Source of the DNA: an uncultured Actinomycetes bacterium
GTDB taxonomy: Bacteria > Actinomycetota > Acidimicrobiia > Spongiisociales > DATADW01
Length of the DNA: 64,000 nucleotides
Direction: 5' to 3'
Assembly (NCBI GenBank): GCA_963824995.1
Contig: CAWGRK010000002.1
Location: 1 to 64,000 of the forward strand
Part shown: positions 3,314 to 46,903 of the stretch, piece by piece
Layout: every line of letters starts with the position of its first letter
How positions within the stretch are numbered: the first letter of the stretch is position 1
Position numbers and translations under genes: made by a program
The notes under the pieces: model-generated
What the model saw: the letters and a program-made list of their open reading frames with translations, nothing else
What the model was told of the DNA's origin: nothing
Databases searched by the model: none

Positions 3314-4630
3314 ATGACCTCCTTCTCGTGCTCCGGTTGCGGATACGTGGCTCCGAAGTGGATGGGCTTCTGTCCACAGTGCCGGCTTGAGGAGCCACTC
3401 GTCGAGGAACGCTCCAAGCCGAAGAGCAGGTCCGGTCCTCCACCCGTCCCGATACCGCTGGCCGAGGCGGGCGGCAATGCCTCTACCCGCGCCGCGGTGG
3501 GCATCGGGGAGGTCGACCGGGTTCTCGGCGGCGGCCTGGTGCCCGGAGCGGTGCTGCTCCTCGGGGGCGAACCCGGAGTCGGGAAGTCCACCCTGGTGCT
3601 CCAGATCGCCGCCGCTATGACCGCGTCGGGCAGGAGGGTGCTCATCGCCTCGGCCGAGGAGTCGGTGGACCAGGTGGGTCTGCGAGCCCAGCGGCTCGGG
3701 GTGATGCGCGGTCCGCTCTTTCTCCTGGCTGAGGACGATGTCGACCGCATCCTCGAATCTGCCGCCGAGATGGCCCCCGACCTGATCGTCATCGACTCGA
3801 TCCAGACGGTTTCGGCGACCGAGGTCGGGAGCGCTCCCGGGGCGACCACCCAGGTGCGCGAGTGTGCTGCCCGGGTGATCCGATTCGCCAAGGAGCACGG
3901 GATCGCCGCGGTGCTCGTGGGTCATGTCACCAAGGACGGCTCCATCGCTGGCCCCAAGACCCTGGAGCACATGGTGGACGTCGTCCTCTACCTGGAGGGG
4001 GAGGGCGACCGCGGGCTGCGGGCTCTACGGGGGTGGAAGAACCGGTTCGGTCCGGCGCATGTAGCCGGGCTTTTCGAAATGAGCCAGGACGGGTTGGTCG
4101 AGGTGGCGGACCCGTCGCGTGCCTTCCTCGCCGAGTGGGAGTCGTCGGTCCCGGGCACCGTCGTCTTCCCCACCATCGACGGGAGACGGCCCGTCCTGGT
4201 CGAGGTGCAGGCGCTCGTGTCGCCGGGGGAGTTCACCCCATCGCGGCGCAGCGCCCGCGGCCTCGATCCGGTCCGTCTGCATCAGCTTCTGGCTGTGCTC
4301 GACCGACATGCCGGGGTCGGGTTCCCACAGCGGGACGTTTACGTGGGGGTGGTCGGAGGGCTGACGCTTTCCGATCCGGGGATCGACCTTCCGGTGGCGC
4401 TCGCGCTGGTCAGCTCTCTGCAGGACGTCCCGCTTGGGCCGTTGGCGGCATGGGGGGAGGTCGGGTTGACGGGCGAGGTCCGTCAGGTGCCGCTGGCGGC
4501 ACGGCGCATGGAGGAGGCGGAGAGGGTCGGTGCCCGAGTACTCGCTCCCTCCAACGGGTCGCGGCTTCGCTTGCCCGAGGCGCTCGAGGCTGCCGGTCTC
4601 GGGATCGGTTCGTTGGCTGGGCGCATCTGA
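3314..4630 (+). CDS. radA: DNA repair protein RadA/Sms
   Basis: C4 zinc finger CSGCG..KWMGFCPQC, Walker A GEPGVGKST, KNRFG motif, Lon-like C-terminus. Confidence 0.97.
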   Translation: MTSFSCSGCGYVAPKWMGFCPQCRLEEPLVEERSKPKSRSGPPPVPIPLAEAGGNASTRAAVGIGEVDRVLGGGLVPGAVLLLGGEPGVGKSTLVLQIAAAMTASGRRVLIASAEESVDQVGLRAQRLGVMRGPLFLLAEDDVDRILESAAEMAPDLIVIDSIQTVSATEVGSAPGATTQVRECAARVIRFAKEHGIAAVLVGHVTKDGSIAGPKTLEHMVDVVLYLEGEGDRGLRALRGWKNRFGPAHVAGLFEMSQDGLVEVADPSRAFLAEWESSVPGTVVFPTIDGRRPVLVEVQALVSPGEFTPSRRSARGLDPVRLHQLLAVLDRHAGVGFPQRDVYVGVVGGLTLSDPGIDLPVALALVSSLQDVPLGPLAAWGEVGLTGEVRQVPLAARRMEEAERVGARVLAPSNGSRLRLPEALEAAGLGIGSLAGRI

Positions 4631-12987: not shown

Positions 12988-15269
12988 CGACGGTCCTCCG
13001 ACTCGAGCGCCCGCGCCGACGCGCCAAGCGGTTCCGGGATCACCCGAGCTCGGGCCAGCGCGGCTAACAGGTGATCGCGGCTGACGGGCTTGACGAGATA
13101 ATCGGTGGCGCCGAGCGAGAGGCCCTTCGCTCGCTCGTCGACAATCGACACGACGATCACGGGGATTGAAGCGGTCTCGGGGTCACGCTTGAGGGTGGCA
13201 AGGACGTCCCAGCCGTTGACGAGCGGCAGCAGGATGTCGAGGACGACTGCCACCGGCTTCATGCGGCGTATGGCTTCCAACCCGCTTGGCCCATCCTGCG
13301 CACTCGAGACCTTGAAGCCGGCACTCTCGAGGTAGACGGTCAGCAAGTCGGTGGATGGACGATCGTCATCGATCACCACGACCGTCGCCGAGCCCAACTC
13401 GACAGGTGCTCTCGACGGGCCACCGTCCGGCAGTGGCTGCGGTCCCGTGGGGACCGTGAACCCGAACGTGCTACCGACGCCCAACTCGCTGTCGAGCCAC
13501 ATCTGGCCACCCATCAGCCCGACGATGCGCCGGGACAACGTGAGTCCCAGGCCCGTGCCCTCCTGGGCGAGAGCACCGCGCGACCCCTGCTGGAACGACT
13601 CGAAAATACGCTCGCAGTCCTCCGGTGCAACACCGACGCCTGTGTCGGCGACAGTGATCACGAAGTCGTCTCCCTCGACCTTCGCCGCAACGACGATCTC
13701 GCCGCCATCGGGCGTGAATTTCACTGCGTTGCTGAGCAGATTGAGCACCACCTGCTTGAACCGCAGCTCATCGGTCTCTATGGCGCCGACCTCCGGGTCG
13801 ACGTCGAGGATCAGGGCGAGGCCATGCGCAGCGGCCCGTTCACGGATCATCGAGAGCCCATACTCGAGCGCATCGGGTACAGAGAACGTGACTTTCTCCA
13901 TTTCCATACGCCCGGCCTCGACCTTGGACAGGTCCAGGATCTCGCTGAGAAGTGCCAGGAGGTGCTTTCCAGAGCTCCAGATGTCGCGGAGGTACTCCTC
14001 TTGGCGATCGTTGATCTCACCGAACATGCGGTCGAGCAGCACCTCCGAAAACCCGATCACGGCGTTGAGGGGGGTCCGCAGCTCGTGCGACATGCTGGCG
14101 AGGAACTCCGACTTGTGGCGGCTGACCACCTCCAACTCGGTGGACTTGCGTTCAAGCTCTCGAAACAGCCGAGCGTTGAGGATCGCCAACGCCGACTGGC
14201 CGGCGAACGTCTGGAGCAGTTCTTCGGTCTCTTCAGGGAAGTCGCCGGCCCGCTTTCGCCGCACGACGAACACACCCACGATCTGTCCCTCGCGGAGCAT
14301 CGGTATCGCCAGCATCGACCGCCAGCCCGCGTCATAGAGAACCTGCTGATGAACGTCCAGGCTCAAGCCGTGCATGTCTGCGATCTGAATCGGCCGCGCC
14401 TCGAACGTGGCGCGGCCGACGAAGGTGCCGTGCAGCGAGATAGTCACGTTCCGGAGCTGCTCGAGCACCGCGTCGCTAGTCCCGTAGGCAGTCCGCACGA
14501 AGAAGCTCTCTTGGGCCTCGTCGAACTCCATCAACGAGCCCCCGTCGGTGCCGGACAGCTGCACTGCGTGCATCACGATCGTCGAGAGCACCGTGTCGAG
14601 GTCCAGGCTGGAGCTCACCGCCTCCCCGACCTGGCCCAGCGCCTCCAACTGACCCACCTTGCGGGCTAGCTCGGCGCGACGACCCTCGAGGGCGCGGATG
14701 AGATCCAGGTTGCGGACGGCGATGGCCGCCGCCGCGGCGAACGCGGTAAGGAGCGCGGTTGCGCGCTCATCGAAGGGGTCGACCTCGGTACGCCAAACCA
14801 ACAGAACGCCGACGACGTCCTCGTCGAGCAGCATCGGTGCGCCCATGATCGTGCGAAAGCCCGCAATCCGCTGGTCGTCCTGGCGGCCGTAGCTGGGGTC
14901 GGCGAGCACGTCGGGGATCTGCGTAGTGCGCCGGTCGAGACTGACGCGGCCGGTGAGCGAGCCGCGGTCGCGGAGGACGGGGTGATCCGTCATGTGCTCG
15001 ACAAAGCTGGGGGACAGTCCCGACGAGCGAGCGAGGCGGTATACCGGTCCGTCGACCAGATTTAGCTGCACACCGTCTGCGCGGCACAGCTTTCGGGCGC
15101 TGTCGACGATGGTCCCGAGAACCAGGTCGAGGTCAGAAGCGGACCTTCCCATCGCGGTGAGCACCTCGTTGGTAGCCACGATCTGCTCTCGAGCATCGAC
15201 GAGATCCCGTCGCAGCTGTTCGATCTCGGACGCGTCGACCACGCTGCCGCCGAGACCCTCCGACATCAT
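12984..15269 (-). CDS. Soluble GAF-GAF hybrid histidine kinase with C-terminal receiver
   Basis: Two GAF-like domains, H-box MSHELRTPLN, N-box NLLSNAVKFT, DTGVG, GTGLGL, REC domain; no TM segment. Confidence 0.94.
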   Translation of the reverse strand: MMSEGLGGSVVDASEIEQLRRDLVDAREQIVATNEVLTAMGRSASDLDLVLGTIVDSARKLCRADGVQLNLVDGPVYRLARSSGLSPSFVEHMTDHPVLRDRGSLTGRVSLDRRTTQIPDVLADPSYGRQDDQRIAGFRTIMGAPMLLDEDVVGVLLVWRTEVDPFDERATALLTAFAAAAAIAVRNLDLIRALEGRRAELARKVGQLEALGQVGEAVSSSLDLDTVLSTIVMHAVQLSGTDGGSLMEFDEAQESFFVRTAYGTSDAVLEQLRNVTISLHGTFVGRATFEARPIQIADMHGLSLDVHQQVLYDAGWRSMLAIPMLREGQIVGVFVVRRKRAGDFPEETEELLQTFAGQSALAILNARLFRELERKSTELEVVSRHKSEFLASMSHELRTPLNAVIGFSEVLLDRMFGEINDRQEEYLRDIWSSGKHLLALLSEILDLSKVEAGRMEMEKVTFSVPDALEYGLSMIRERAAAHGLALILDVDPEVGAIETDELRFKQVVLNLLSNAVKFTPDGGEIVVAAKVEGDDFVITVADTGVGVAPEDCERIFESFQQGSRGALAQEGTGLGLTLSRRIVGLMGGQMWLDSELGVGSTFGFTVPTGPQPLPDGGPSRAPVELGSATVVVIDDDRPSTDLLTVYLESAGFKVSSAQDGPSGLEAIRRMKPVAVVLDILLPLVNGWDVLATLKRDPETASIPVIVVSIVDERAKGLSLGATDYLVKPVSRDHLLAALARARVIPEPLGASARALESEDRR

Positions 15270-37471: not shown

Positions 37472-37539
37472 GACGGCAGACGGCAGAAGACAGCCGGTCC
37501 AGTCCAAGCGGAAGGGCTACCAGCGTGCGGGGACATCCG

Positions 37540-39021
37540 TTACAGGTCTTCTGGCGCTGCCTTCTTCGAGGCCCGGCGGCGATCGGATGGTGGCGAGGCC
37601 GCCCTTCGTGCCGCAGCCAACAGTTGTTCGTGAGAGTCGCGCAGTGAGGCAATCAAATCTGGCAGGTCGGGGACGATGTCCCAGTCGGCCTGCACCCCCC
37701 AACCCATCCGGCCGTCGTAGCTGAAGAGAGCTATCCCCGCTCCGTGGTGCTCCCATAGCGGCACCGCCGCATAGAGGGCGAGGATTTTCGACTCCATCAA
37801 GTACATCGGGAACTGCGGGCCGGGCACATTTGTCACGGTGAGGTTGAACGGGCGCAGCACCTGTCCGGCGAGCCGGGCCCCCAATCCGACCAGCGTGGTC
37901 GGGGCGCCGGCTGACATTTGGACGATGGTGGCGGCACCCAAGGCCTGATCGGTCTCTTTCAGCTTGGACGTCTCGGCGGTGATCGCCCGCAGGCGCCGGA
38001 CGGGATCGCCTTCAGCCAGCGGCATCTTGACCAGCCACATTGCGATCTGATTTCCCAACTCGCCATGTGATGGACCCGGCCGAACGCTCACCGGCGCCAT
38101 CACCCTGAAATCGAGGTCAGCGAGTGAGAACGAGCGCCTCTCGGTGAGAAAGCGGCGGATGCCCCCGGCCACGATTGCCAAGATGACGTCGTTGACGCTC
38201 CCTCCGAATTGTTGCTTCACCTCCTTCACCTCGGCAAGCGGAACCTCGAACCAGTCGAAACGCCTATTGGGCCCGATGTCGCCGTTGAGTGGGGTCATCG
38301 ACGTCGCCCGCAACCAACCCGAGGCAAGCGAGGCGGCGGTGGCACGCGCTCGTCGTCGGCTCGATGACCAAAGCGTGGAGGCAGGAGCATCGAGCCGACC
38401 GAAGCTGCGTACTGCGTCGGTCACCCGGCGGGTGCGGCGGGCAGCCTCGGCGACCATGAGCTGGGTGCCCTCAGGGGCGGGTCTCGGTTGCCACTCGTCG
38501 AGTGGCTCGATCTTCACGTCCGGTGATAGGCCAAATAGCACTGCCATCAGGTCGACCCCGGCAATGCCATCGATCATGCAATGGTGGACCTTGGCGATCA
38601 GCGCGAATCGGTCGTCATCGAGGCCCTCGGCGACCCAAAACTCCCAGAGCGGCTGGGCGTGATCGAGTTGCTGGGAGAGGACGCGCCCGGCGAGTCGTTT
38701 CAGTTGTGCTTCCGTTCCCGGGCGAGGCAGGCTCGTGTGGCGGACGTGGTACTCGATATCGAAGTGGTCGGCGTCAACCCAAATGGGGGATCGCCCCAGT
38801 GGTGTCCAGGCGAGCCGTTGGCGGTAACGGGGGACGTACTTCAGTCGAGAGGCGATGAAGGCCCGGATTCGATCGATGTCGATCCCGCCGTCAGATGTGC
38901 GCAGGGGCCCCGCGTCGAGGATGGCAACGCTGGCGACATGGAAGTGTGCTCGACCTGTCTCCAGAGCCAGGAACGAGGCGTCGAGGGGCGAGAGGCGCTC
39001 GTAATAGGTGGCGGTGTTCAC
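37540..39021 (-). CDS. Wax ester synthase/diacylglycerol acyltransferase (WS/DGAT)
   Basis: RLSPLDASFL, PLWE, HHCMIDG active-site motif, NDV, TNVPGP. Confidence 0.95.
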   Translation of the reverse strand: MNTATYYERLSPLDASFLALETGRAHFHVASVAILDAGPLRTSDGGIDIDRIRAFIASRLKYVPRYRQRLAWTPLGRSPIWVDADHFDIEYHVRHTSLPRPGTEAQLKRLAGRVLSQQLDHAQPLWEFWVAEGLDDDRFALIAKVHHCMIDGIAGVDLMAVLFGLSPDVKIEPLDEWQPRPAPEGTQLMVAEAARRTRRVTDAVRSFGRLDAPASTLWSSSRRRARATAASLASGWLRATSMTPLNGDIGPNRRFDWFEVPLAEVKEVKQQFGGSVNDVILAIVAGGIRRFLTERRSFSLADLDFRVMAPVSVRPGPSHGELGNQIAMWLVKMPLAEGDPVRRLRAITAETSKLKETDQALGAATIVQMSAGAPTTLVGLGARLAGQVLRPFNLTVTNVPGPQFPMYLMESKILALYAAVPLWEHHGAGIALFSYDGRMGWGVQADWDIVPDLPDLIASLRDSHEQLLAAARRAASPPSDRRRASKKAAPEDL

Positions 39022-39126
39022 ATGGTTGCCTTTGCCAAGAACCGAATCTACGTCACGGCACTCGACCACCTGCCCGAGATTCCGCGACAGTTCTCGGTCC
39101 TGATTGACAGCTGAGTCAGGGTGGTC

Positions 39127-39873
39127 TCAGCTGTCGGGCACCAGAGAACCGAGATCGGTCACGACGACATCGGCGCCGGCCCGGCGCAACTCGTCGGCGA
39201 CATCGAGCCGATCAACCCCGATCACCAGACCGAAACCACCCGCCTTTCCGGCGGCGACCCCCGAGATGGCGTCTTCGACCACCACGCATCGGTCTGGTTT
39301 GACTGCCAGTCGGCGCGCAGCCTCGAGGAAGCAGTCGGGAGCGGGTTTGCCGGGGAGTCCGTCATTCGAGATTGTGATCCCGTCGACGCTGGTATCGAAC
39401 ATGTCCTCCAACTCGGCCTTGGCCACCACTGCCGCACGGTTTTTGCTCGAGGTGACGACCGCCGTCTTCATTCCCTGCTCGCGGACCCACTTCAGGAACC
39501 GGACTGAGCCGTCGTAGACCTCGACCCCATCGGAATCCAGCACCTGGTTGAACAGCTCGTCCTTCCGATTTCCCAGCCCACACACCGTTTCCCGATCGGG
39601 CGAATCAGAGGGTTTGCCTTCTGGAAGGTCGATTCTGCGCGAGGTGAGAAACGTCCGCACCCCGTCGTAGCGCGGCCTGCCGTCGATGTAGTTCAAGTAA
39701 TCGTCTTCGGTGAACGGCCGGAACGGCTCATCCAACGAAGCCGCCCGTGCCTCCAGGTACTCGTCGAACATGCGCTTCCAGGCAGAGGCGTGGACGTGGG
39801 CGGTGGCGGTGATCACACCGTCGAGGTCGAAGAGGACGGCGTCGTAGCTGTCGGGGCCGACTGTCGGTGCCAC
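39127..39873 (-). CDS. Beta-phosphoglucomutase-family HAD hydrolase
   Basis: FDLDGVIT, DGRPRYDGV, GKPAPD, VEDAISGV. Confidence 0.9.
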   Translation of the reverse strand: MAPTVGPDSYDAVLFDLDGVITATAHVHASAWKRMFDEYLEARAASLDEPFRPFTEDDYLNYIDGRPRYDGVRTFLTSRRIDLPEGKPSDSPDRETVCGLGNRKDELFNQVLDSDGVEVYDGSVRFLKWVREQGMKTAVVTSSKNRAAVVAKAELEDMFDTSVDGITISNDGLPGKPAPDCFLEAARRLAVKPDRCVVVEDAISGVAAGKAGGFGLVIGVDRLDVADELRRAGADVVVTDLGSLVPDS

Positions 39874-39903
39874 CGGAGCGATGGTAGGTGGCGAGCTCTC
39901 CGC

Positions 39904-40224
39904 TCAGCGCTTGGGGAGTCCCTTGCCACCAACGGGAACGGTCTCGGTGCCACCTGGGATATCTGCGATCAGAGGCATCGCCTCTTCGATCAGCGCCAGG
40001 GTCTCTGACACGTTGAGCGAGGCGCGGTGCGCCTCTTTGTTCACCCAGACCTCGCTGACCCAAACGGCATCGGGTTCGTCTTCGGAGCGGTGGATCACGT
40101 AGAGCTCGCAGCCAGGATCGTCTCCGAGCACCTCGGCGGCACTCAATAGGATCTCGGCGAGGGCATCACCCCTCCCCGGATTGGCCACCATCTTCCCGTG
40201 TAACCCGTATCTGGGCATTGTCAT
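39904..40224 (-). CDS. Antibiotic biosynthesis monooxygenase (ABM) family protein
   Basis: PGRGDAL, PGCELY, VWVSEVW...AHRASL. Confidence 0.85.
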   Translation of the reverse strand: MTMPRYGLHGKMVANPGRGDALAEILLSAAEVLGDDPGCELYVIHRSEDEPDAVWVSEVWVNKEAHRASLNVSETLALIEEAMPLIADIPGGTETVPVGGKGLPKR

Positions 40225-40233
40225 CCGATCGCT

Positions 40234-40309
40234 TGGCGCCCTCGGTAGGACTCGAACCTACGACACCCAACTTAGGAGGTTGGTGCTCTATCCCCTGAGC
40301 TACGAGGGC
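40234..40309 (-). tRNA. tRNA-Arg(CCT)
   Basis: GCCCTCG/CGAGGGC, GCTC/GAGC, CCAAC-CTCCTAA-GTTGG, GTAGG-TTCGAGT-CCTAC, G-CCA. Confidence 0.97.
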
Positions 40310-40377
40310 CTGAAAAAGTGGTCTGATCTGGGGTTTCGTTTCAGTGGCTACCTCACAAGAACTAGCACAACGGTGGA

Positions 40378-40413
40378 GAGCACCAAACTCGTCGGGGACG
40401 CGAGCACCAAACT
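40378..40413 (+). repeat. Two copies of GAGCACCAAACT (40378-40389, 40402-40413); third copy at 43468-43479
   Basis: Exact 12-mers inside both ends of the element. Confidence 0.8.
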
Positions 40414-40692
40414 AAACAATCCACACCAACATCGCAGCGGCGCCTGCGACCCCAAGGTGATAGGCCCGCTCTTGGCGCCGGCACCTGTTCGGGGTCGACC
40501 GCCTGGAGCTCTTTGGGTCGGGACGCCACCATCTGCGGGGCGATGCCAACTGGGCAGATCATCCGTCCTGACGATTCGTAGGGGGCGGTTTGTCAGACCT
40601 CAGGCGCGGTCATGCGAGCAACTCGAGGTTTGTCGATCACCAGCTCGGCCACCTCGTAGTCCATCGACCCTGTGCGGTCGTAACCTGGCTGC

Positions 40693-41892
40693 GTGGCCTC
40701 GGATTCCTTCTTCGAAGCCCCCGAAGAGCCGGACCTGCCACAGGACCGTGGATACGGATGGTTGCCGCTTGCAGCCATGGCCGGCGCCGCGCTCGTTGTG
40801 ATCGGAATGATCCTGCTCTGGCCGCGGAGCGACAGGCTTCCCGACCCGACAGGGCTGGGTTTGGCTCAGACCGCAATCCGGGCCGAGGTCACCACCGTGG
40901 AGCCGGGGCCATGTCCGGGGACGCGCCGGGCCGATGACATCGAGTGCACCCTGGTCGGTTTTCGCCTCCTCGAGGGAAGGGACAGCGGCGAGACCGTGGT
41001 TCTCGGCTTCGGGGAAGCCGAATCGACGCCCGAGTTCGCCGAGGGGGACAGGGTGGTGCTCTATGACCAGGGTGGCAACGCCCGACTGGACCGCCGCTAC
41101 CAGTTCGCCGACAGGGAACGCCGCCCCGTCCTCCTCTTCGTCACGTTGGCGTTCGCCTTGGCCGTAGTCGCCCTGGGCCGGTGGCGAGGGTTGGCGTCTC
41201 TCGCCGGATTGGCCATCAGCGTCGTTGTGCTCACCGTTTTCATCATCCCGTCAATCCTCTCGGGTCGCCCGGCAACGTTGGTCGCTGTGGTCGGCGCCGC
41301 CGCCATCGCCTATACGGCCTTGTATCTCTCCCACGGGTTCAACCCGCACACTCATGTCGCCCTGCTCGGCACGCTGGGCGCGCTCGCTCTCACCGTGGCG
41401 TTGTCGGCGCTGGTCACCGCCCTCGCTCAACTGAGCGGATTCGCATCAGAGGAGGCGCTTTTGGTGTCGCAACTCGGTGCGACCGTCGACGTGAGCGGGC
41501 TGATCCTCGCCGGGATCGTGCTCGGGGCGGTGGGCGCTCTCGACGATGTCACCGTCACCCAGACCTCGACCGTGTGGGAGCTTCGGCTTGCCAACCCGGC
41601 GCTGAGCGGCGGCCCTCTGCTTCGGGCGGCTCTTAGGGTTGGGCGCGACCACGTGGTGTCCTCGGTGAACACCCTGCTGCTCGCCTACGCCGGAGCGGCG
41701 ATACCGCTGCTCATCCTTTTCAGCCTGTCTGATCTTGGTCTCGGCACCGTTGCCAACAGCGAGATCGTCGCCACCGAGATCATCCGTACCCTCGTCGGGT
41801 CGATCGGGCTTGTGGCGGCCGTGCCCATCACCACCTGGCTCGCCTCCGAAGTGGCCGGATCGATCCCGCATTCGGAGTTACGAAGGCATTGA
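40693..41892 (+). CDS. YibE/F family membrane protein
   Basis: Y.FADRER, GRWRGL.SL, GALDDVTVTQ, VGRDH..S.VNTLLLAYAG, EIIRTLVGSIGL..AVP.TT; TAACCT 6 nt before GTG. Confidence 0.9.
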   Translation: MASDSFFEAPEEPDLPQDRGYGWLPLAAMAGAALVVIGMILLWPRSDRLPDPTGLGLAQTAIRAEVTTVEPGPCPGTRRADDIECTLVGFRLLEGRDSGETVVLGFGEAESTPEFAEGDRVVLYDQGGNARLDRRYQFADRERRPVLLFVTLAFALAVVALGRWRGLASLAGLAISVVVLTVFIIPSILSGRPATLVAVVGAAAIAYTALYLSHGFNPHTHVALLGTLGALALTVALSALVTALAQLSGFASEEALLVSQLGATVDVSGLILAGIVLGAVGALDDVTVTQTSTVWELRLANPALSGGPLLRAALRVGRDHVVSSVNTLLLAYAGAAIPLLILFSLSDLGLGTVANSEIVATEIIRTLVGSIGLVAAVPITTWLASEVAGSIPHSELRRH

Positions 41893-41979
41893 CCGTACCC
41901 GAGGTGGTACCCGGTTAGGACCTAAAAGCGGTCGACAGCCAACCTCAGCGGGGGCGCTGCAGATGCTGGCGACGACTCG

Positions 41980-42215
41980 CTATCTGCCAGCGCTTGTGAG
42001 AACGGCCGCGACGAAGGCGTCGCGACCGGTCCGCGTGGCGAACCCCAAACGACGACGGCCGCCGAATGGGTCGACCTGGAGCGCCGCCCATGGATCGGGC
42101 GCCTCCACGACGAGCTCTGCCACCTCGGCCGCGGGGGCCCCTCGTCGACGTGGTGGGACAAGTCCGCGTCGAAGCCGAAGCTGCCAACCACATGGCACGG
42201 ACGCCCGGAGCTCAC
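41980..42215 (-). CDS. Small hypothetical protein (~78 aa), one frameshift ~42138
   Basis: GTG overlaps the cyclase TGA; ...HHVDEG joins PAAEVAELVVEAPDPW...VLTSAGR if one base is restored in the G/C run. Confidence 0.5.
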
Positions 42216-43030
42216 AGCCGTAGCGGAGGGAACCTCATCGGTAGGCCCTTGCTGGCGATCTGAAATAGCGCCACCTCTGCGTGCAGCCCTTTCAGGCGGT
42301 GCGACCCGAGGTCGACGAAGCGCACGCCCGCCGCTGACGTTGCCCTGACCGCCTCCCTAGTGTTGGCCGTCACCACGATCTGGCCGCCGTGCCCGGCGGC
42401 GCACACCCGTGACGCGGTGTTGACGTCGATGCCGACATAGTTCCCAGGGGTGGGCGTCGGGTACCCACTGTGGATACCGATGCGGACGCGCACGGAGACG
42501 TTGTCGACCCACGCCTGCGCAGCCAGCGCCAGCTGCATGGCGATCGCCGCGTCCACGGCGGCGCGTGGCGCCTCGAACGCAGCGAAGAACTCGTCGGCGC
42601 GGGCCTCTACGACGCAGCCACCAGCATTGTCGACCGCGCCGCGGAGTACAGCGACGACGTCATCGATCAGGGTGCCGAAGCGGCCGCCGAGTTGGTTGAC
42701 CAGGCTCGTCGAGCCTTCGACGTCGGTCATGAGCAGCGTGACGAACCCGGCCGGAACGCTGACCGGACCGTCCCGGCGGCTTGCCGCCTCTAGCTGACTG
42801 GTGATGAAACCGACGGGCACGATGCGGAACCGCCTGGCCGCTCGGAGCAGCCGGCTGCGTGCCCGGTCACGGGCCGCTTCGTCCTCGAAGTCGACCTGGT
42901 TGAAGCGGGCGAGAGCGTTGCGGACGTGCGCGGCGTCATGGATCGGCAGCCGCCTCATGCCGCGTGAGTCGATGTAGGCAAATGCGCGGTCGGGGAGGGC
43001 GGCGCGTTCTCGGGCGCTGAGGGTCGCCAT
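42212..43030 (-). CDS. DUF6582-like domain fused to class III nucleotidyl cyclase
   Basis: LSARERAALPDRAFAY...RLPIHDAAHVRNALARFNQV + MTDVEGST, ADEF, RIGIHSG, VNTASRV, GHGGQ; TACCGT 6 nt before ATG. Confidence 0.88.
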   Translation of the reverse strand: MATLSARERAALPDRAFAYIDSRGMRRLPIHDAAHVRNALARFNQVDFEDEAARDRARSRLLRAARRFRIVPVGFITSQLEAASRRDGPVSVPAGFVTLLMTDVEGSTSLVNQLGGRFGTLIDDVVAVLRGAVDNAGGCVVEARADEFFAAFEAPRAAVDAAIAMQLALAAQAWVDNVSVRVRIGIHSGYPTPTPGNYVGIDVNTASRVCAAGHGGQIVVTANTREAVRATSAAGVRFVDLGSHRLKGLHAEVALFQIASKGLPMRFPPLRL

Positions 43031-43555
43031 GTCGAGACGGTACCAACAGAATGTCGGACCGAACGGCGAGACATGACGGCCACGGGCATCCCACAGTGCC
43101 GATTCCACCGGCACCCACGCTCGTGTCCGCGTTGGGAATCACCTCTATTCGTCAAGCGAAAACTGCAGCCGAGTCACGCCTGCGGAGGCGCTCACGCCGG
43201 CCACGGGACTCCGCCATCGACCCCCACCCCGCGACCCCGGGGGTGCGACCGACGGTTGGACTCCAGGACCAGACCACGGTCGGCCGTGGATGACGCCCGT
43301 CAATGCGATCGACTGACACCGGAGGTCTTTCGAGCTCGTGAGGTGGGCCGTTTCACGGAACGCCCGGGAGAGGTGGTCCCAGATCACCCACGGAGGGACC
43401 GGTTTCACCCCTCAAGGACGGGGAATTCCGTCGATGCTGCTCCGACTTCCGGGGGAGTGGAACCTTCGAGCACCAAACTGGACGCTGTACGGACGGGCGG
43501 TCGTCGGGGCCTACCTGGCAGAACGCGATCGAGCACAGCGGTAAGCCTCAACGAG

Positions 43556-43593
43556 TTAGGAGGTTGGTGCTCTATCCCCTGAGCTACGAGGGC
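43556..43593 (-). repeat. 5' half of tRNA-Arg(CCT) (att-site duplicate)
   Basis: GCCCTCGTAGCTCAGGGGATAGAGCACCAACCTCCTAA; identity ends at the 3' edge of the anticodon loop. Confidence 0.92.
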
Positions 43594-43672
43594 ATGAGGG
43601 TGAGTATCGCGGGGCGGTGTCGACCTCAGGTGATGGCCCGATCGCGTGGCGTCGCCACCGGAACTCGTCACC

Positions 43673-44740
43673 TCATCCGGCGGCGACGGTGATGCTCCCC
43701 GAACTGGTGCGGACCACGATGCTGCTGTCAGCCGCGGGATCTTGGTCAACCCCACGACCTCCTCGTCTCCCGAGGAGGAGTCGAGGTCGATCGCGTAGGC
43801 CCCCTCGGGTACCACGAGGTGGGCGTCACCCGATCCGATGGACACCTCCACCCAGGTTCGGCGCATCTGTAGATGCGAGGATCACGCTGCCCGAACTGGT
43901 GCTGGCGGTGAGCGCCGAGGTGGACAGGCTCTCCGACCTGATGTCACCCGAGCCGGTCTCCAGGGAGGTTTCGCCGACGACGCCCTCCACCTCGATCGAG
44001 CCGGAGCTGGCAATGGCGGTGAGGGCCGAGGCGGTGAGGTCCAGAGCTCGGATGTCGCCCGAGCCAGTCTCCAACGATGCCTCGCCGGCATCGCCGTAGA
44101 TCTCGATCGAACCGGAACTGGTGGTGGCGGTGAGTGCGGGCACGTCGAAGTCGCGACCTCGGATGTCTCCCGAGCCGGTCTCCAGCGAGGTCTCACCCGA
44201 GACGCTCTCGACCGCGATCGAACCGGAGCTGGTGGCGAGGTTGACGCCCCCGATCAAGCCCCGTGCGTTCAAGTCACCGGAGCCCGAGTCGACGATCAAC
44301 TCGACCGACGCGGGGGCAGTGACCTGGTAGTCGACACTGCACGACGAGAAGAACAATTCGTTTGGGCAAAGGACCTCGATGTGGAGCACCCCGTTCACCA
44401 CCTCCTCCGTCACGCTCGGTCGGTTGGCGCGGAAACGGCTGACCCGCTCCAGGTGAACATCCTCTTCCCCTGCGGCAACCTCAATCGATCCCGAATCGGA
44501 GGTCACCTCGATTCGCTGGATTGGCTCGGTGAACGCGGCAGTCGTGGTCTCGATGGTCTCGGGCTCGATCCACCGGCTCCATGCCCAGAAGCCGGCGCCG
44601 ATCAGCGCTGCGGCCGCCACGAGGGCGAGGATCGGCATCAGCAGCCCGGCCAGTGCGACGCTGACCGAAGGTGGTCGCGTGTCACTGGGTGGAGAGACTT
44701 CGGTCGAGGGGACTGGGGGGATGCGGACGTCGTTTGACAT
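43673..44740 (-). CDS. DUF4097 beta-strand-repeat (adhesin-like) membrane protein; frameshifts ~43853 and ~43742
   Basis: TM anchor, repeated SSGSI/TGSGDI motifs, 37-aa (111-bp) repeats; C-terminus continues in other frames to TGA 43673. Confidence 0.82.
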
Positions 44741-44741
44741 G

Positions 44742-45386
44742 TCAGGACTCCAGGTATCGAAGGACGGCGAGCACCCGGCGATGGTCGCCGGGGGTGGGCG
44801 GCAGGTCGAGCTTGGTGAGGATGTTGCCGATGTGCTTCTCGACGGCACCGGCACTGACGGTGAGCGCCTCGGCGATCGCGTTGTTGGAGCATCCCTCGGC
44901 CATCAACGAGAGCACTGTCCGTTCCCGGTCGGTGAGACGGTCGAGAGGGTCTCGGCGGCGACTGCGCACCAGGAGTTGGGAAACCACCTCGGGGTCGAGG
45001 ACGGTGCCGCCGGCGGCGACTCGACGGGCCGACTCGACGAATTCGGAGACGTCGGCCACTCGATCCTTGAGGAGATATCCCACACCTCCGGGATGGTCGG
45101 CGAGGAGTTCCGAGGCGTACTCCTCCTCGACGTATTGGCTGAGGACCAGCACGGCCGTGTCGGGATGGCGTTGTCGAAGTTCGAGGGCAGCGCGGATCCC
45201 CTCGTCGCGGTAGGTCGGGGGCATCCGGACGTCGACAATTGCCAAGTCGGGTCGTTCCCTTGCCACCGCTTCGATCAGATGATCGCCATCTCCCGCTTCG
45301 GCGACCACCTCTTCGCCGGCATCGCTGAGCAACCTGACCAAGCCGGCGCGCAGCAGCACCGAGTCCTCGGCGATGGCGATCCGCAC
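44742..45386 (-). CDS. NarL/LuxR family response regulator
   Basis: IAEDSVLLRAG, VDVRMPP, LSQYVE, YLLKDRV, HTH LTDRE..VL.LMAEG. Confidence 0.93.
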   Translation of the reverse strand: MRIAIAEDSVLLRAGLVRLLSDAGEEVVAEAGDGDHLIEAVARERPDLAIVDVRMPPTYRDEGIRAALELRQRHPDTAVLVLSQYVEEEYASELLADHPGGVGYLLKDRVADVSEFVESARRVAAGGTVLDPEVVSQLLVRSRRRDPLDRLTDRERTVLSLMAEGCSNNAIAEALTVSAGAVEKHIGNILTKLDLPPTPGDHRRVLAVLRYLES

Positions 45387-45387
45387 C

Positions 45388-46696
45388 TCATTCCCCTTCT
45401 GGACCGCAGGGAATCTCGGCGCGGAGCACGGTGGGTCCGCCCGGTGGGCTCTCGATCTGGAATCTCCCGTCGACCGCGGCAACTCTGTCCGCCAGGCCGG
45501 CGAGGCCGGTGCCCAACGCCGCATCGGCGCCACCCCGTCCATTGTCGCTGACCTCGATCTCGAGAACATCGCCGCGCACAACCGTCCGAACAGAAGCTCC
45601 GGTTGCCCCGGAATGACGGGCGACATTGGCGAGTGCCTCGCATACCAGGTAGTAGGCAATGCCCTCGACCCCGGGGTCGAGCCGATGCGGCAAGTTGACC
45701 TCGAGCGCCACGGGAATTGTCGAGCGAGCCGCAACCGAAGAAAGTGCAGCGCCCAGCCCCCGGTCGGACAAGATCGCCGGGCTGATCCCCCGCACGATGT
45801 TGCGCAGCGTGGCGAGGGCTTGCTTCGCCTCCTGGTGGCCTTCGTCAACGAGGGCTCGTGCGGCCTCGGGGTCTGTGGCGAACTTCTCCTTGGCCATGCC
45901 GAGCGTCATCGCCAAGGACACCAACTGCTGGCCGGCGCCATCGTGGAGGTCACGTTCGATACGGCGACGCTCCTGTTCGGTGGCGTCGACCATGCGTGAC
46001 CGGCTCGAGGCGAGCTCGGAAACGCGCCTCCCGAGGCGGTCCCCCTCCGTGGGGCCGAGCATCGCGTGAGCGACGGCGATATCGAGGCGGGCAAGGGCAC
46101 CGATCATCCAGGGAAGCCAGGCGAGCGCGGCAAGGCCGACGAGAGGCGAGGCAATCGCGAGCATCAGGAACCCGGGTGCAGTGAGGTCGGCGCCGAGTTG
46201 AGCCATCAGAAATGGGGTTGCGAGCAGGGAAAGCGGAATGCTCCATGCGAGCAGGGCGAGAGGTGAAGGTGAAGATCCCAAGCGGGAGAAGCAGCTGAAG
46301 GTAGGCGAACTCCCTCCACGTGACCGGATCCGACATCGAGGACCAAAACCGGTGGTGCCACGATCCGCCACCGCGTCGGCGTGGCGGAAGAGGGATGTCC
46401 GAACGGAGCAGGACGCCGACGCGGGCGCGATCGAACGCCGCCATACCACGCACCACCCAGAGCCATGAGAACAGCACCAGGAGGCCGATCGGGTACACGA
46501 TCAGGAGGGGGATTCCCAAGAGGAGCAGGGTCAGGCTGAGCACAAACCCCACGATCCCCATGGGAAGATCGAGGAGGAGGTGCGCGGTGGACCCGAACAG
46601 TCGTCGGAACGAATCGCCGATGTGCCTCCAGTTCCAAGCCGAAGAGGCAGCCGGACCCGATGTAGTTACGGGCGTGGAAGGGGGCGCACTGGACAC
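45388..46696 (-). CDS. Membrane sensor histidine kinase (HisKA_3); frameshift ~46260
   Basis: TM sensor region, ERRRIERDLHDGA, EALANVARHS, DNGRGG, GTGLAGL. Confidence 0.9.
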
Positions 46697-46903
46697 GATG
46701 GCACGGTACGTCAGGCGTTGTCTCGGCACAATGAAGCCTCCCGGTGTCTCGGGAGTGGGGATCGCCCTACCCCGCGACCCCTGGCCGGGCGAAGTCCGCA
46801 GCAACCCCCTCGGGGACCACCTCGTGACTTGGAAGGACTGACAGCAGGGCCGCGTTGTCGGCGCGTGGCGCCACTAGACGTCTGTGGTGTCGGGCGCCTG
46901 CGT

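Follow-up and report, generated by a model that had tools for sequence, protein, structure and literature searches.

Two kinds of integrated element that are already known come close to the one reported here. One is the tRNA-gene island that carries a 5′ fragment of its target; in Table 1 of the Islander paper (PMC4383910), a 5′ fragment is listed for 159 of 3919 islands and an anticodon-centered site for 2083. The other is the cis-mobilizable element (CIME), an element without an integrase gene that has retained its attachment (att) sites (PMC5704250). We analyzed a stretch of 64,000 nucleotides (here called the window) from the genome of an uncultured soil Acidimicrobiia bacterium (G000; assembly of 2.9 Mb, 85% complete) and found in it an island of about 3.3 kb at the gene for tRNA-Arg(CCT). 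The island belongs to both known kinds and can be classed as a CIME-type element that has decayed. All genomes compared are metagenome-assembled genomes (MAGs); G001 to G005 are congeners, and the assembly of G003 is 72% complete.

Like the 5′-fragment islands of the Islander database, the locus combines an intact tRNA gene with a direct upstream copy of its 5′ part, has an anticodon-centered att site and points to the tyrosine integrase family. It shows the configuration that Islander looks for, an intact tRNA gene plus a 100% identical end fragment in the same orientation (here a 5′ fragment 3.25 kb upstream), and its unit length of 3,284 bp lies within the Islander range of 2 to 200 kb. Islander also requires an integrase gene inside the island (PMC4383910); the window island has none and therefore would not be catalogued. 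Like a CIME as defined in PMC5704250, it keeps attL and attR (38/38 core) and has arms that are conserved with an element of a congener (G004 element A), without an integrase or a relaxase. A further likeness to CIMEs and their accretion is that relatives show tandems and an element with an integrase plus a relaxase. The described CIME and accretion elements lie at the 3′ end of the target gene, whereas the window's kind lies at the 5′ half, and the hints of cis-mobilization are structural, namely the tandems in G004 and in the tRNA-Lys array of G000.

An island bounded by two copies of the tRNA-Arg(CCT) 5′ half

ARAGORN placed an intact tRNA-Arg(CCT) gene at 40234-40309 of the window, on the minus strand. 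Whole-genome ARAGORN found this gene in a single copy among the 45 tRNA genes of the G000 assembly, which also has a tRNA-Arg(TCT). A repeat finder aligned 40272-40313 with 43556-43597 as a direct repeat, with 41 of 42 positions identical. The exact block within it is 38 bp and corresponds to tRNA-Arg(CCT) positions 1-38. Its first copy (40272-40309, minus strand) is the att site beside the intact gene; its second (43556-43593, minus strand) is an orphan 5′ half, a displaced host fragment. With the anticodon at positions 34-36 and the anticodon loop at 32-38, the repeat ends at the last loop base, and position 39 differs between the copies (C at 40271 and G at 43555, plus strand). A match of 38 bp cannot be due to chance. 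The boundary is ambiguous inside the repeat, and the unit can be written as 40310-43593 or as 40272-43555.

The native upstream region of the tRNA gene (43594-43640, minus strand) now reads into the island and contains a −10-like GATACT at 43603-43608 (minus strand). Read in the orientation of the tRNA, the order is thus the native upstream region with GATACT, the orphan 5′ half, 3.25 kb of cargo and the intact tRNA gene. The intact gene is chimeric: positions 39-76 are the host 3′ part, and positions 1-38, or a portion of them, are element borne. A preliminary description, made from the letters of the window, had reported the 38-bp direct repeat equal to the tRNA 5′ half, the stop of identity at the edge of the anticodon loop and this order of parts, and all three agree with the ARAGORN, repeat and coordinate data.

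The arrangement is not an assembly artifact, a concern that the preliminary description had raised. The same architecture is present in G004, and small contigs from soil sequencing runs span each junction: record 7 of run X1 corresponds to 43480-43628 and record 10 of run X2 to 40234-40494. Twenty runs matched, with shares of at most 0.15 each and none recorded as RNA; the runs behind the junction contigs may include the source sample.

An empty site and related islands in congeners

We compared the site by a DNA search of 40 relatives followed by BLAST on the fetched loci. Contig C101 of G001 has an empty site, in which the left flank and the whole tRNA gene are contiguous with the right flank. 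The sequence upstream of this tRNA gene is homologous to that preceding the orphan half in the window, including the GATACT, which reads GATATT in G002. Thus, the empty site for which a check in relatives had been proposed exists, and the island shows the patchy distribution with a precise empty site that TIGER-type criteria ask for. Either this site was never occupied or its island was lost by precise excision.

Three other congeners have islands at tRNA-Arg(CCT). The island of G005 is ~3.9 kb and carries genes for an epimerase and an ECF sigma factor, and that of G002 is ~8.7 kb with ChrB-type and MFS genes. G004 has a tandem, in which element A (4.3 kb; a subtilase and an fn3 protein) is followed by element B, which runs off the contig. 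The locus was not seen in the G003 assembly. A tRNA-proximal arm of ~178 bp (40310-40487 in the window, exactly 178 bp) is present in every Arg(CCT) island of the genus, five in all: those of the window, G002 and G005 and elements A and B of G004. In intact relatives, this arm corresponds to the stretch between the tRNA and integrase genes together with the first few codons of the integrase. A distal arm (43466-43555) is common to the window island and G004 element A; together with the orphan half (43466-43593), it matches the distal end of element A at 93% identity across 128 nt, and element A likewise closes with an orphan 5′ half, from which 1 nt has been deleted. In G002, G005 and G004 element B, the orphan half is lost or can no longer be recognized. 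Allowing up to 2 mismatches, we found the 38-nt 5′ half of tRNA-Arg(CCT) in 8 of 401 genomes of the order; five belong to this genus, with G000 among them, and three to a different genus, in which it is the plain tRNA gene. G000 alone has two copies.

A second kind of element was seen at the same tRNA gene. In G002, tRNA-Arg(CCT) (locus L017, G002:C8, 14101-14176) is flanked by islands on both sides, the upstream one being the 5′-type island described above. Downstream, at L018 (G002:C9, 4125-5590), a gene for a 420-aa integrase lies beside an orphan 3′ part (tRNA positions 27-76) in a classical element whose length is 22 kb or more. Since the gene lies between a 5′-type and a classical 3′ element, both of its halves may be element derived. 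Contig C138 of G001 (L064, 5.4 kb) has a 94%-identical classical integrase with the same junction, whereas the main contig of that genome has the empty site, which suggests population heterogeneity.

Deletion of the integrase gene

The preliminary description had noted that the element has no intact integrase. Pfam searches of the island open reading frames (ORFs) found no integrase domain (no PF00589 match) and no relaxase, and tblastn of the window island with 10 integrases of the clade described below gave a best E value of 9.5, in agreement with that claim. Sister islands do have remnants. By tblastn, an N-terminal integrase remnant lies in G004 element A (L019, ~3796-4060; frameshifted; E = 2e-14) and another in G002 (L017, 13769-13927; E = 1e-9), and both start exactly where homology to the window proximal arm stops, at 40487. 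Since the remnants begin at this breakpoint and the window has none, the window copy is a deletion derivative. As judged by these alignments, the integrase gene has been deleted in the window from 40488 onward, and what is left is the sequence between the tRNA and integrase genes, perhaps with the first codons of the latter. The window copy is thus a derivative and not a full member of the integrase-bearing family. The preliminary description had called the element "decayed or mobilised in trans"; the remnants in the sister islands and the breakpoint at 40487 bear out decay.

Past the breakpoint lies a spacer (40488-40692 in the ORF list) with no integrase similarity by tblastn, followed by the cargo. 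This comprises a gene for a YibE/F-like membrane protein of 399 aa (40693-41892, plus strand; PF07907, E = 1.2e-68) and one for a class III nucleotidyl cyclase of 300 aa with an N-terminal DUF6582 (42212-43114, minus strand; PF00211, E = 3e-12; PF20223, E = 1.2e-6).

Cassette arrays at tRNA-Lys(TTT)

We scanned all 45 tRNA genes of G000 for partial copies. Positions 1-38 of tRNA-Lys(TTT), on contig C8, are repeated upstream of the gene at 100%, 97% and ~80% identity. Each copy begins one of three tandem integrase-less cassettes, of 4.7, 1.9 and 1.1 kb (C8:82015-89698; L063, 4016-11699). Among the proteins encoded by the cassettes are a STAND/LuxR regulator and a DUF2214 protein, and the distal arms of the cassettes carry inverted one-mismatch copies of the corresponding tRNA-Lys segment.

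In G004, the intact tRNA-Lys(TTT) gene adjoins an element of 13.8 kb, with an orphan Lys 5′ half as its boundary. The element encodes an integrase of 302 aa (PF00589, 67.8 bits) with an N-terminal SAM-like domain; the gene starts 97 nt from the tRNA 5′ end, is transcribed divergently and is followed by two ORFs that together match a TrwC relaxase (split). With a relaxase in at least one member of the family, that member would be an integrative mobilizable element; no conjugation genes beyond the split TrwC relaxase were found in this larger relative. Behind the integrase-bearing element of G004, in tandem, lies a 97%-identical copy of the first Lys cassette of G000. By analogy only, these arrays resemble integrons, since small integrase-less units are arrayed at one fixed site with a fixed outward-reading promoter upstream. 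They differ in that there is no attC-type folded site, IntI or attI; the site is an anticodon loop, and each unit carries a tRNA 5′ half.

The same scan found 3′-part duplicates on G000 contigs C1, C13, C16 and C17, downstream of tRNA-Ala(TGC), tRNA-Ala(CGC), tRNA-Arg(ACG), tRNA-Met and tRNA-SeC. The tRNA-SeC duplicate covers positions 39-93 and is 2.8 kb away, and an integrase fragment lies between tRNA-Ala(CGC) and its duplicate. These duplicates are remnants of the usual 3′-type islands.

A clade of Xer-like integrases next to tRNA genes

A search of 151 genomes of the order with the G004 integrase matched 17 places. All 12 at 39% identity or more (including two C-terminal fragments, at 53-54%) have a tRNA gene nearby, whereas no tRNA gene lies near the 5 at 32-36% identity. 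Eleven of the 12 have the 5′ end of the tRNA toward the start of the integrase gene; the exception, at tRNA-Thr(TGT) of G136, has the 3′ end there, and G142 provides a matching 5′-type element at tRNA-Thr(TGT). Intact clade integrases at tRNA-Arg(CCT) are present in G119 and G056. A sample of 401 genomes of the class gave 33 places with E ≤ 1e-40, from which 22 new loci were taken in and 3 were left out. With a tRNA gene within ~230 nt of the integrase start counted as linked, 17 of the 22 new loci are tRNA linked (9 5′ facing and 8 3′ facing) and 5 are without a tRNA. Together, the two samples hold 34 loci, of which 29 are tRNA linked, 20 of them 5′ facing and 9 3′ facing, and 5 are without a tRNA. 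Two loci are from unpublished genomes, L111 (5′ type, G684) and L122 (no tRNA, G561). The preliminary description had called 5′-restoring elements rare. This is true in general, with 159 of 3919 islands in the Islander table (PMC4383910), and untrue for this clade, in which 20 of the 29 tRNA-linked loci are of that kind.

The family to which the island belongs is one of small integrative, partly mobilizable elements of Acidimicrobiia, and most sampled members carry the 5′ half of the target. Among the candidates scored, 622 proteins matched the clade integrase at E ≤ 1e-20; the matches listed are mostly of ~300 aa and are named only "XerD" or "integrase." Like XerC and XerD, the clade integrase (~300 aa) consists of an N-terminal SAM-like domain and a catalytic domain and lacks a separate arm-binding domain. 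In NCBIfam it scores highest with XerD and XerC, at 113-115 bits, far below their cutoffs of 330-335 bits. Unlike XerC and XerD, which are chromosomal and dif linked, the clade gene is element borne and tRNA linked, and in the tree a 100/100 branch sets the clade apart from the Xer-like genes of G000. Given the low XerC/XerD scores, this branch and the location of the gene, the window island is probably not an integrative mobile element exploiting Xer (IMEX) of the host. The label of tRNA orientation requires at least two changes on well-supported branches of the tree and six by parsimony.

A partner tRNA fragment was found at 13 of 26 loci (6 of 11 and 7 of 15). Up to 20 kb was fetched per locus for this search, and many partnerless loci end at contig edges. 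Among the 5′ blocks, positions 1-38 are repeated in the window Arg, G000 Lys and G438 Met elements (loop 32-38), 1-40 in the Met elements of G149, G143 and G202 (loop 34-40), 1-39 in that of G097 (loop 33-39) and 1-40 in that of G486 (loop 32-38). The 3′ blocks cover 32-74 in two elements and 27-74 in one (loop 32-38 in each case) and 33-77 in another (loop 33-39); at tRNA-Val of G675, also of the 3′ type (loop 33-39), the whole tRNA is duplicated. Overall, 5′-type blocks end at the last loop base, as seen with eight integrase-bearing elements, and 3′-type blocks start at the first. The 7-nt anticodon loop is common to both and is the likely overlap region, which fits the anticodon-centered att class of Islander. 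The block boundaries across the clade agree with the crossover in the anticodon loop that had been proposed for the window.

The G675 element is ~13 kb (L137, G675:C2:113420-133419) and lies between two identical complete copies of tRNA-Val(TAC), at 40-114 and 13099-13173 of the locus. Its attP apparently carries the whole tRNA gene.

Arm boxes

The arms of the window island contain a 12-nt box, GAGCACCAAACT, twice in the proximal arm (40378-40389 and 40402-40413, plus strand) and once in the distal arm (43468-43479). These are the only exact copies in the 2.9-Mb G000 genome, and all three are at island ends. Among the congeners, G002 has two exact copies of the box, G004 five, G005 and G003 one each and G001 none; 7 of these 9 copies are at islands. 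The lone boxes on contig C9 of G003 and contig C6 of G004 have no tRNA nearby and are probably there by chance. Apart from one mismatch, the box matches tRNA positions 22-33 in inverted orientation, and it is homologous to the AGTTATCCGCTCT-like box in other arms of the clade. From their number and placement, we regard the boxes as candidate integrase arm sites, to which the integrase would bind.

We had considered the box to be a designed tRNA mimic and dropped this idea; an alignment of 17 arms suggests a clade-wide box instead. Inverted tRNA copies are present in the arms of the Arg and Lys elements of this genus, and none was found at 11 of 12 matches in the arms of Met elements of other genera. 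A scan of genome contigs for the paired-arm-box pattern matched G002 and G005 alone, and no integrase-bearing Arg(CCT) element of the genus was found in this way. The scan also matched 34 loci on metagenome contigs and one on a viral contig, which by BLAST are chance matches, mostly in low-G+C DNA without arm homology.

The promoter of the intact tRNA gene

The preliminary description held that the intact tRNA gene is now cut off from its native promoter, and this proved correct: the upstream region native to the gene has remained beside the orphan half, and the intact gene is now preceded by a conserved arm. We aligned the proximal arms of 17 elements, which have five target tRNA species and come from eleven genomes. 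The alignment has three common features: the AGTTATCCGCTCT-like box, at which the window has AGTTTGGTGCTCT; a CGTTGTGCTA box; and an AAACCC motif, after which comes a −10-like stretch that is rich in A/T and lies ~17-28 nt ahead of the tRNA gene. The proximal arm is the putative site of an element-supplied tRNA promoter.

The alternative, that transcripts from the native promoter read through to the intact tRNA gene, is unlikely. The cyclase gene, which has the same orientation as the orphan half and the native promoter, would be reached first, then a terminator-like hairpin (41944-41930, minus strand) between the convergent cargo genes, and the YibE/F gene lies antisense in between. The hairpin is a consensus match only, from a scan with 2 found against 1.5 expected. 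RNA folding gave nothing usable, with z = 0.05 for the orphan half plus the distal arm and z = −2.45, driven by box-tRNA pairing, for the proximal arm plus the tRNA.

Origin and mobility of the island

We consider it highly probable that the island is an integrated element that was inserted, through an attP with the 5′ part of the tRNA gene, into the tRNA-Arg(CCT) loop and is now decayed and integrase-less. The unit, or an ancestor of it, would have been inserted by a tyrosine integrase that recombined attP with this gene at the anticodon loop. An attP usually carries the 3′ part of a tRNA gene; this one would have carried positions 1-38, and the host 5′ half and its promoter would consequently have been displaced 3.3 kb upstream. 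The working gene is now an element-borne 5′ half, preceded by an element arm and fused to the host 3′ half. Intact members of the family have a ~300-aa Xer-like integrase, the gene for which starts ~100 nt away from the 5′ end of the tRNA and is transcribed divergently. The window element has lost this gene and kept both att copies, both arms with their 12-nt boxes and unrelated YibE/F and cyclase cargo. The data show the insertion itself, its empty counterpart in G001, the family relationship, the deletion of the integrase gene and the identity bounded by the loop. We infer that it could move only with a cognate integrase supplied in trans.

Several observations weigh against this reading or parts of it. 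Between the conserved arms, no two genomes have any cargo in common, which requires independent integrations or internal replacement. In G004 element A, the arm boxes lie within an open frame continuous with the integrase remnant, and part of the box conservation could therefore reflect coding history. A scan of 40100-43800, proximal arm included, found no sigma-70-type promoter, and at the −10-like position the Arg arms of the genus read CAGATC, a poor match; on account of both, we infer rather than observe that the element supplies the promoter. In tblastn searches of the five islands at tRNA-Arg(CCT) in this genus, no intact integrase was found, which leaves current mobility unsupported. 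The preliminary description had suggested a search of the genome for an integrase acting in trans; there is no clade integrase in the G000 assembly, 85% complete as it is. The integrase-like genes of G000 are two Xer-like genes with counterparts in 3-5 congeners, which at 29-30% identity are its sole homologues of the G004 Lys integrase, and one fragment adjoining tRNA-Ala. Finally, no contig or read joins 40271 to 43556 or contains a circle junction, in very thin data: the contigs from runs X1-X4 are 100-700 nt long, and coverage is far too thin for the absence of a junction to count.

These observations bear on whether the island might still be mobilizable, as a CIME in the strict sense, by a clade integrase that acts in trans from another element of the population, with captures building the arrays. 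We think this rather unlikely. It would fit the 38/38 identity of the att copies, the intact state of both arms and all three boxes, and the tandems at G004 tRNA-Arg(CCT) and at tRNA-Lys(TTT) of G000 and G004, whose junctions resemble attP in having a 5′ half between a distal and a proximal arm, as well as the tandem in which the integrase-bearing element of G004 precedes the near-identical Lys cassette. A missing integrase gene is also less telling in a MAG that is 85% complete, with mobile elements often unbinned. Nevertheless, G000 has no cognate integrase, an intact Arg(CCT)-specific one was found in no congener, the soil-run contigs, thin as they are, have no excision junction, and the copies that have lost their orphan half (G002, G005 and G004 element B) are fixed.

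A rival candidate to the Xer-like clade is a classical integrase of ~420 aa, which targets tRNA-Arg(CCT) from the 3′ side (G002 contig C9 and G001 contig C138) and adjoins an orphan 3′ part that contains the same anticodon stem-loop. Insertion by this integrase is very unlikely. It has no tblastn match at E ≤ 1 in the Arg(CCT) islands, whereas the Xer-like clade matches the remnants down to 2e-14; moreover, the classical element arms are without a GAGCACCAAACT box at up to 1 mismatch, and the proximal arm of the window aligns with arms of the Xer-like clade. Barely credible is a locus that was never mobile, that is, a local partial duplication of the tRNA or an assembly artifact around ordinary chromosomal genes. 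Island G+C is like that of the flanks, the cargo is ordinary and an integrase is missing, as would be expected; nonetheless, the precise empty site in G001 and the integrase remnants in sister islands refute it. The conserved arms, the same architecture at another tRNA and in other genera, and the soil-run contigs across the junctions also stand against it. We conclude that integration by a member of the Xer-like clade, followed by loss of the integrase gene, best explains the island.

Implications of 5′ insertion

A wider reading has somewhat better chances of being wrong than right: it joins an orientation-indifferent Xer-like clade, 5′ insertion as a promoter swap, retention of the arm and integron-like arrays. 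Recombination would take place within the 7-nt loop of the near-palindromic anticodon arm, and attP may evolve to carry either tRNA half. On 5′ insertion, the element would give the tRNA gene its own promoter and take the host tRNA promoter, from which transcription would pass across the orphan half to cargo of the same orientation; for the window island, the cargo with the captured promoter would be the cyclase gene. If the only tRNA-Arg(CCT) gene of the cell depends on the proximal arm, the arm would be kept after loss of the integrase, and integrase-less cassettes would accumulate into integron-like arrays upstream of tRNA genes.

The island illustrates how a tRNA gene can come to depend on a mobile element, which provides its 5′ half and probably its promoter as well; this dependence would long outlast the integrase. 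The att sites of the clade can be read directly, with a tRNA ~100 nt from the gene start and blocks bounded by the anticodon loop in both orientations, and the clade offers a natural system for studying the polarity of tRNA-targeting integration and the dominance of the 3′ type elsewhere. Island finders that require an integrase have a blind spot for integrase-less cassettes and arrays such as those at tRNA-Arg(CCT) and tRNA-Lys(TTT). A limited search of the open-access literature found no description of an integrase clade with both tRNA orientations and a 5′ majority, or of integrase-less 5′-half cassettes or their arrays. For the organism, with a membrane protein and a cyclase as cargo, the consequences of the island are modest.

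Cargo and flanks

The island has a G+C content of 0.64-0.70 and shows no contrast with its flanks. A cyclase module of 1.25 kb (window 42202-43455) is 92-95% identical to copies at a different, non-tRNA chromosomal locus in G002 (L022, G002:C7, 3726-4988) and G001 (G001:C436:13695-14640); the corresponding place on G000 contig C7 has no copy. As judged from this comparison, cargo moves between island and chromosome.

The flanks of the tRNA site differ in their similarity to congeners. The left flank (37500-40233) is ~83% identical to that of four congeners and the right flank (43594-46500) 93-95%, which suggests recombination import on one side. To the right of the island, a DUF4097 "toastrack" gene (43826-44854, minus strand) contains three tandem 111-nt repeats (43889-44221) of 70-72% identity. 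Beyond it, two overlapping minus-strand ORFs (45388-46449 and 45950-46804) divide one "Sensor" domain between them, adjoin HisKA_3/HATPase and lie upstream of a LuxR-type response regulator; the pair is possibly a frameshifted sensor kinase gene.

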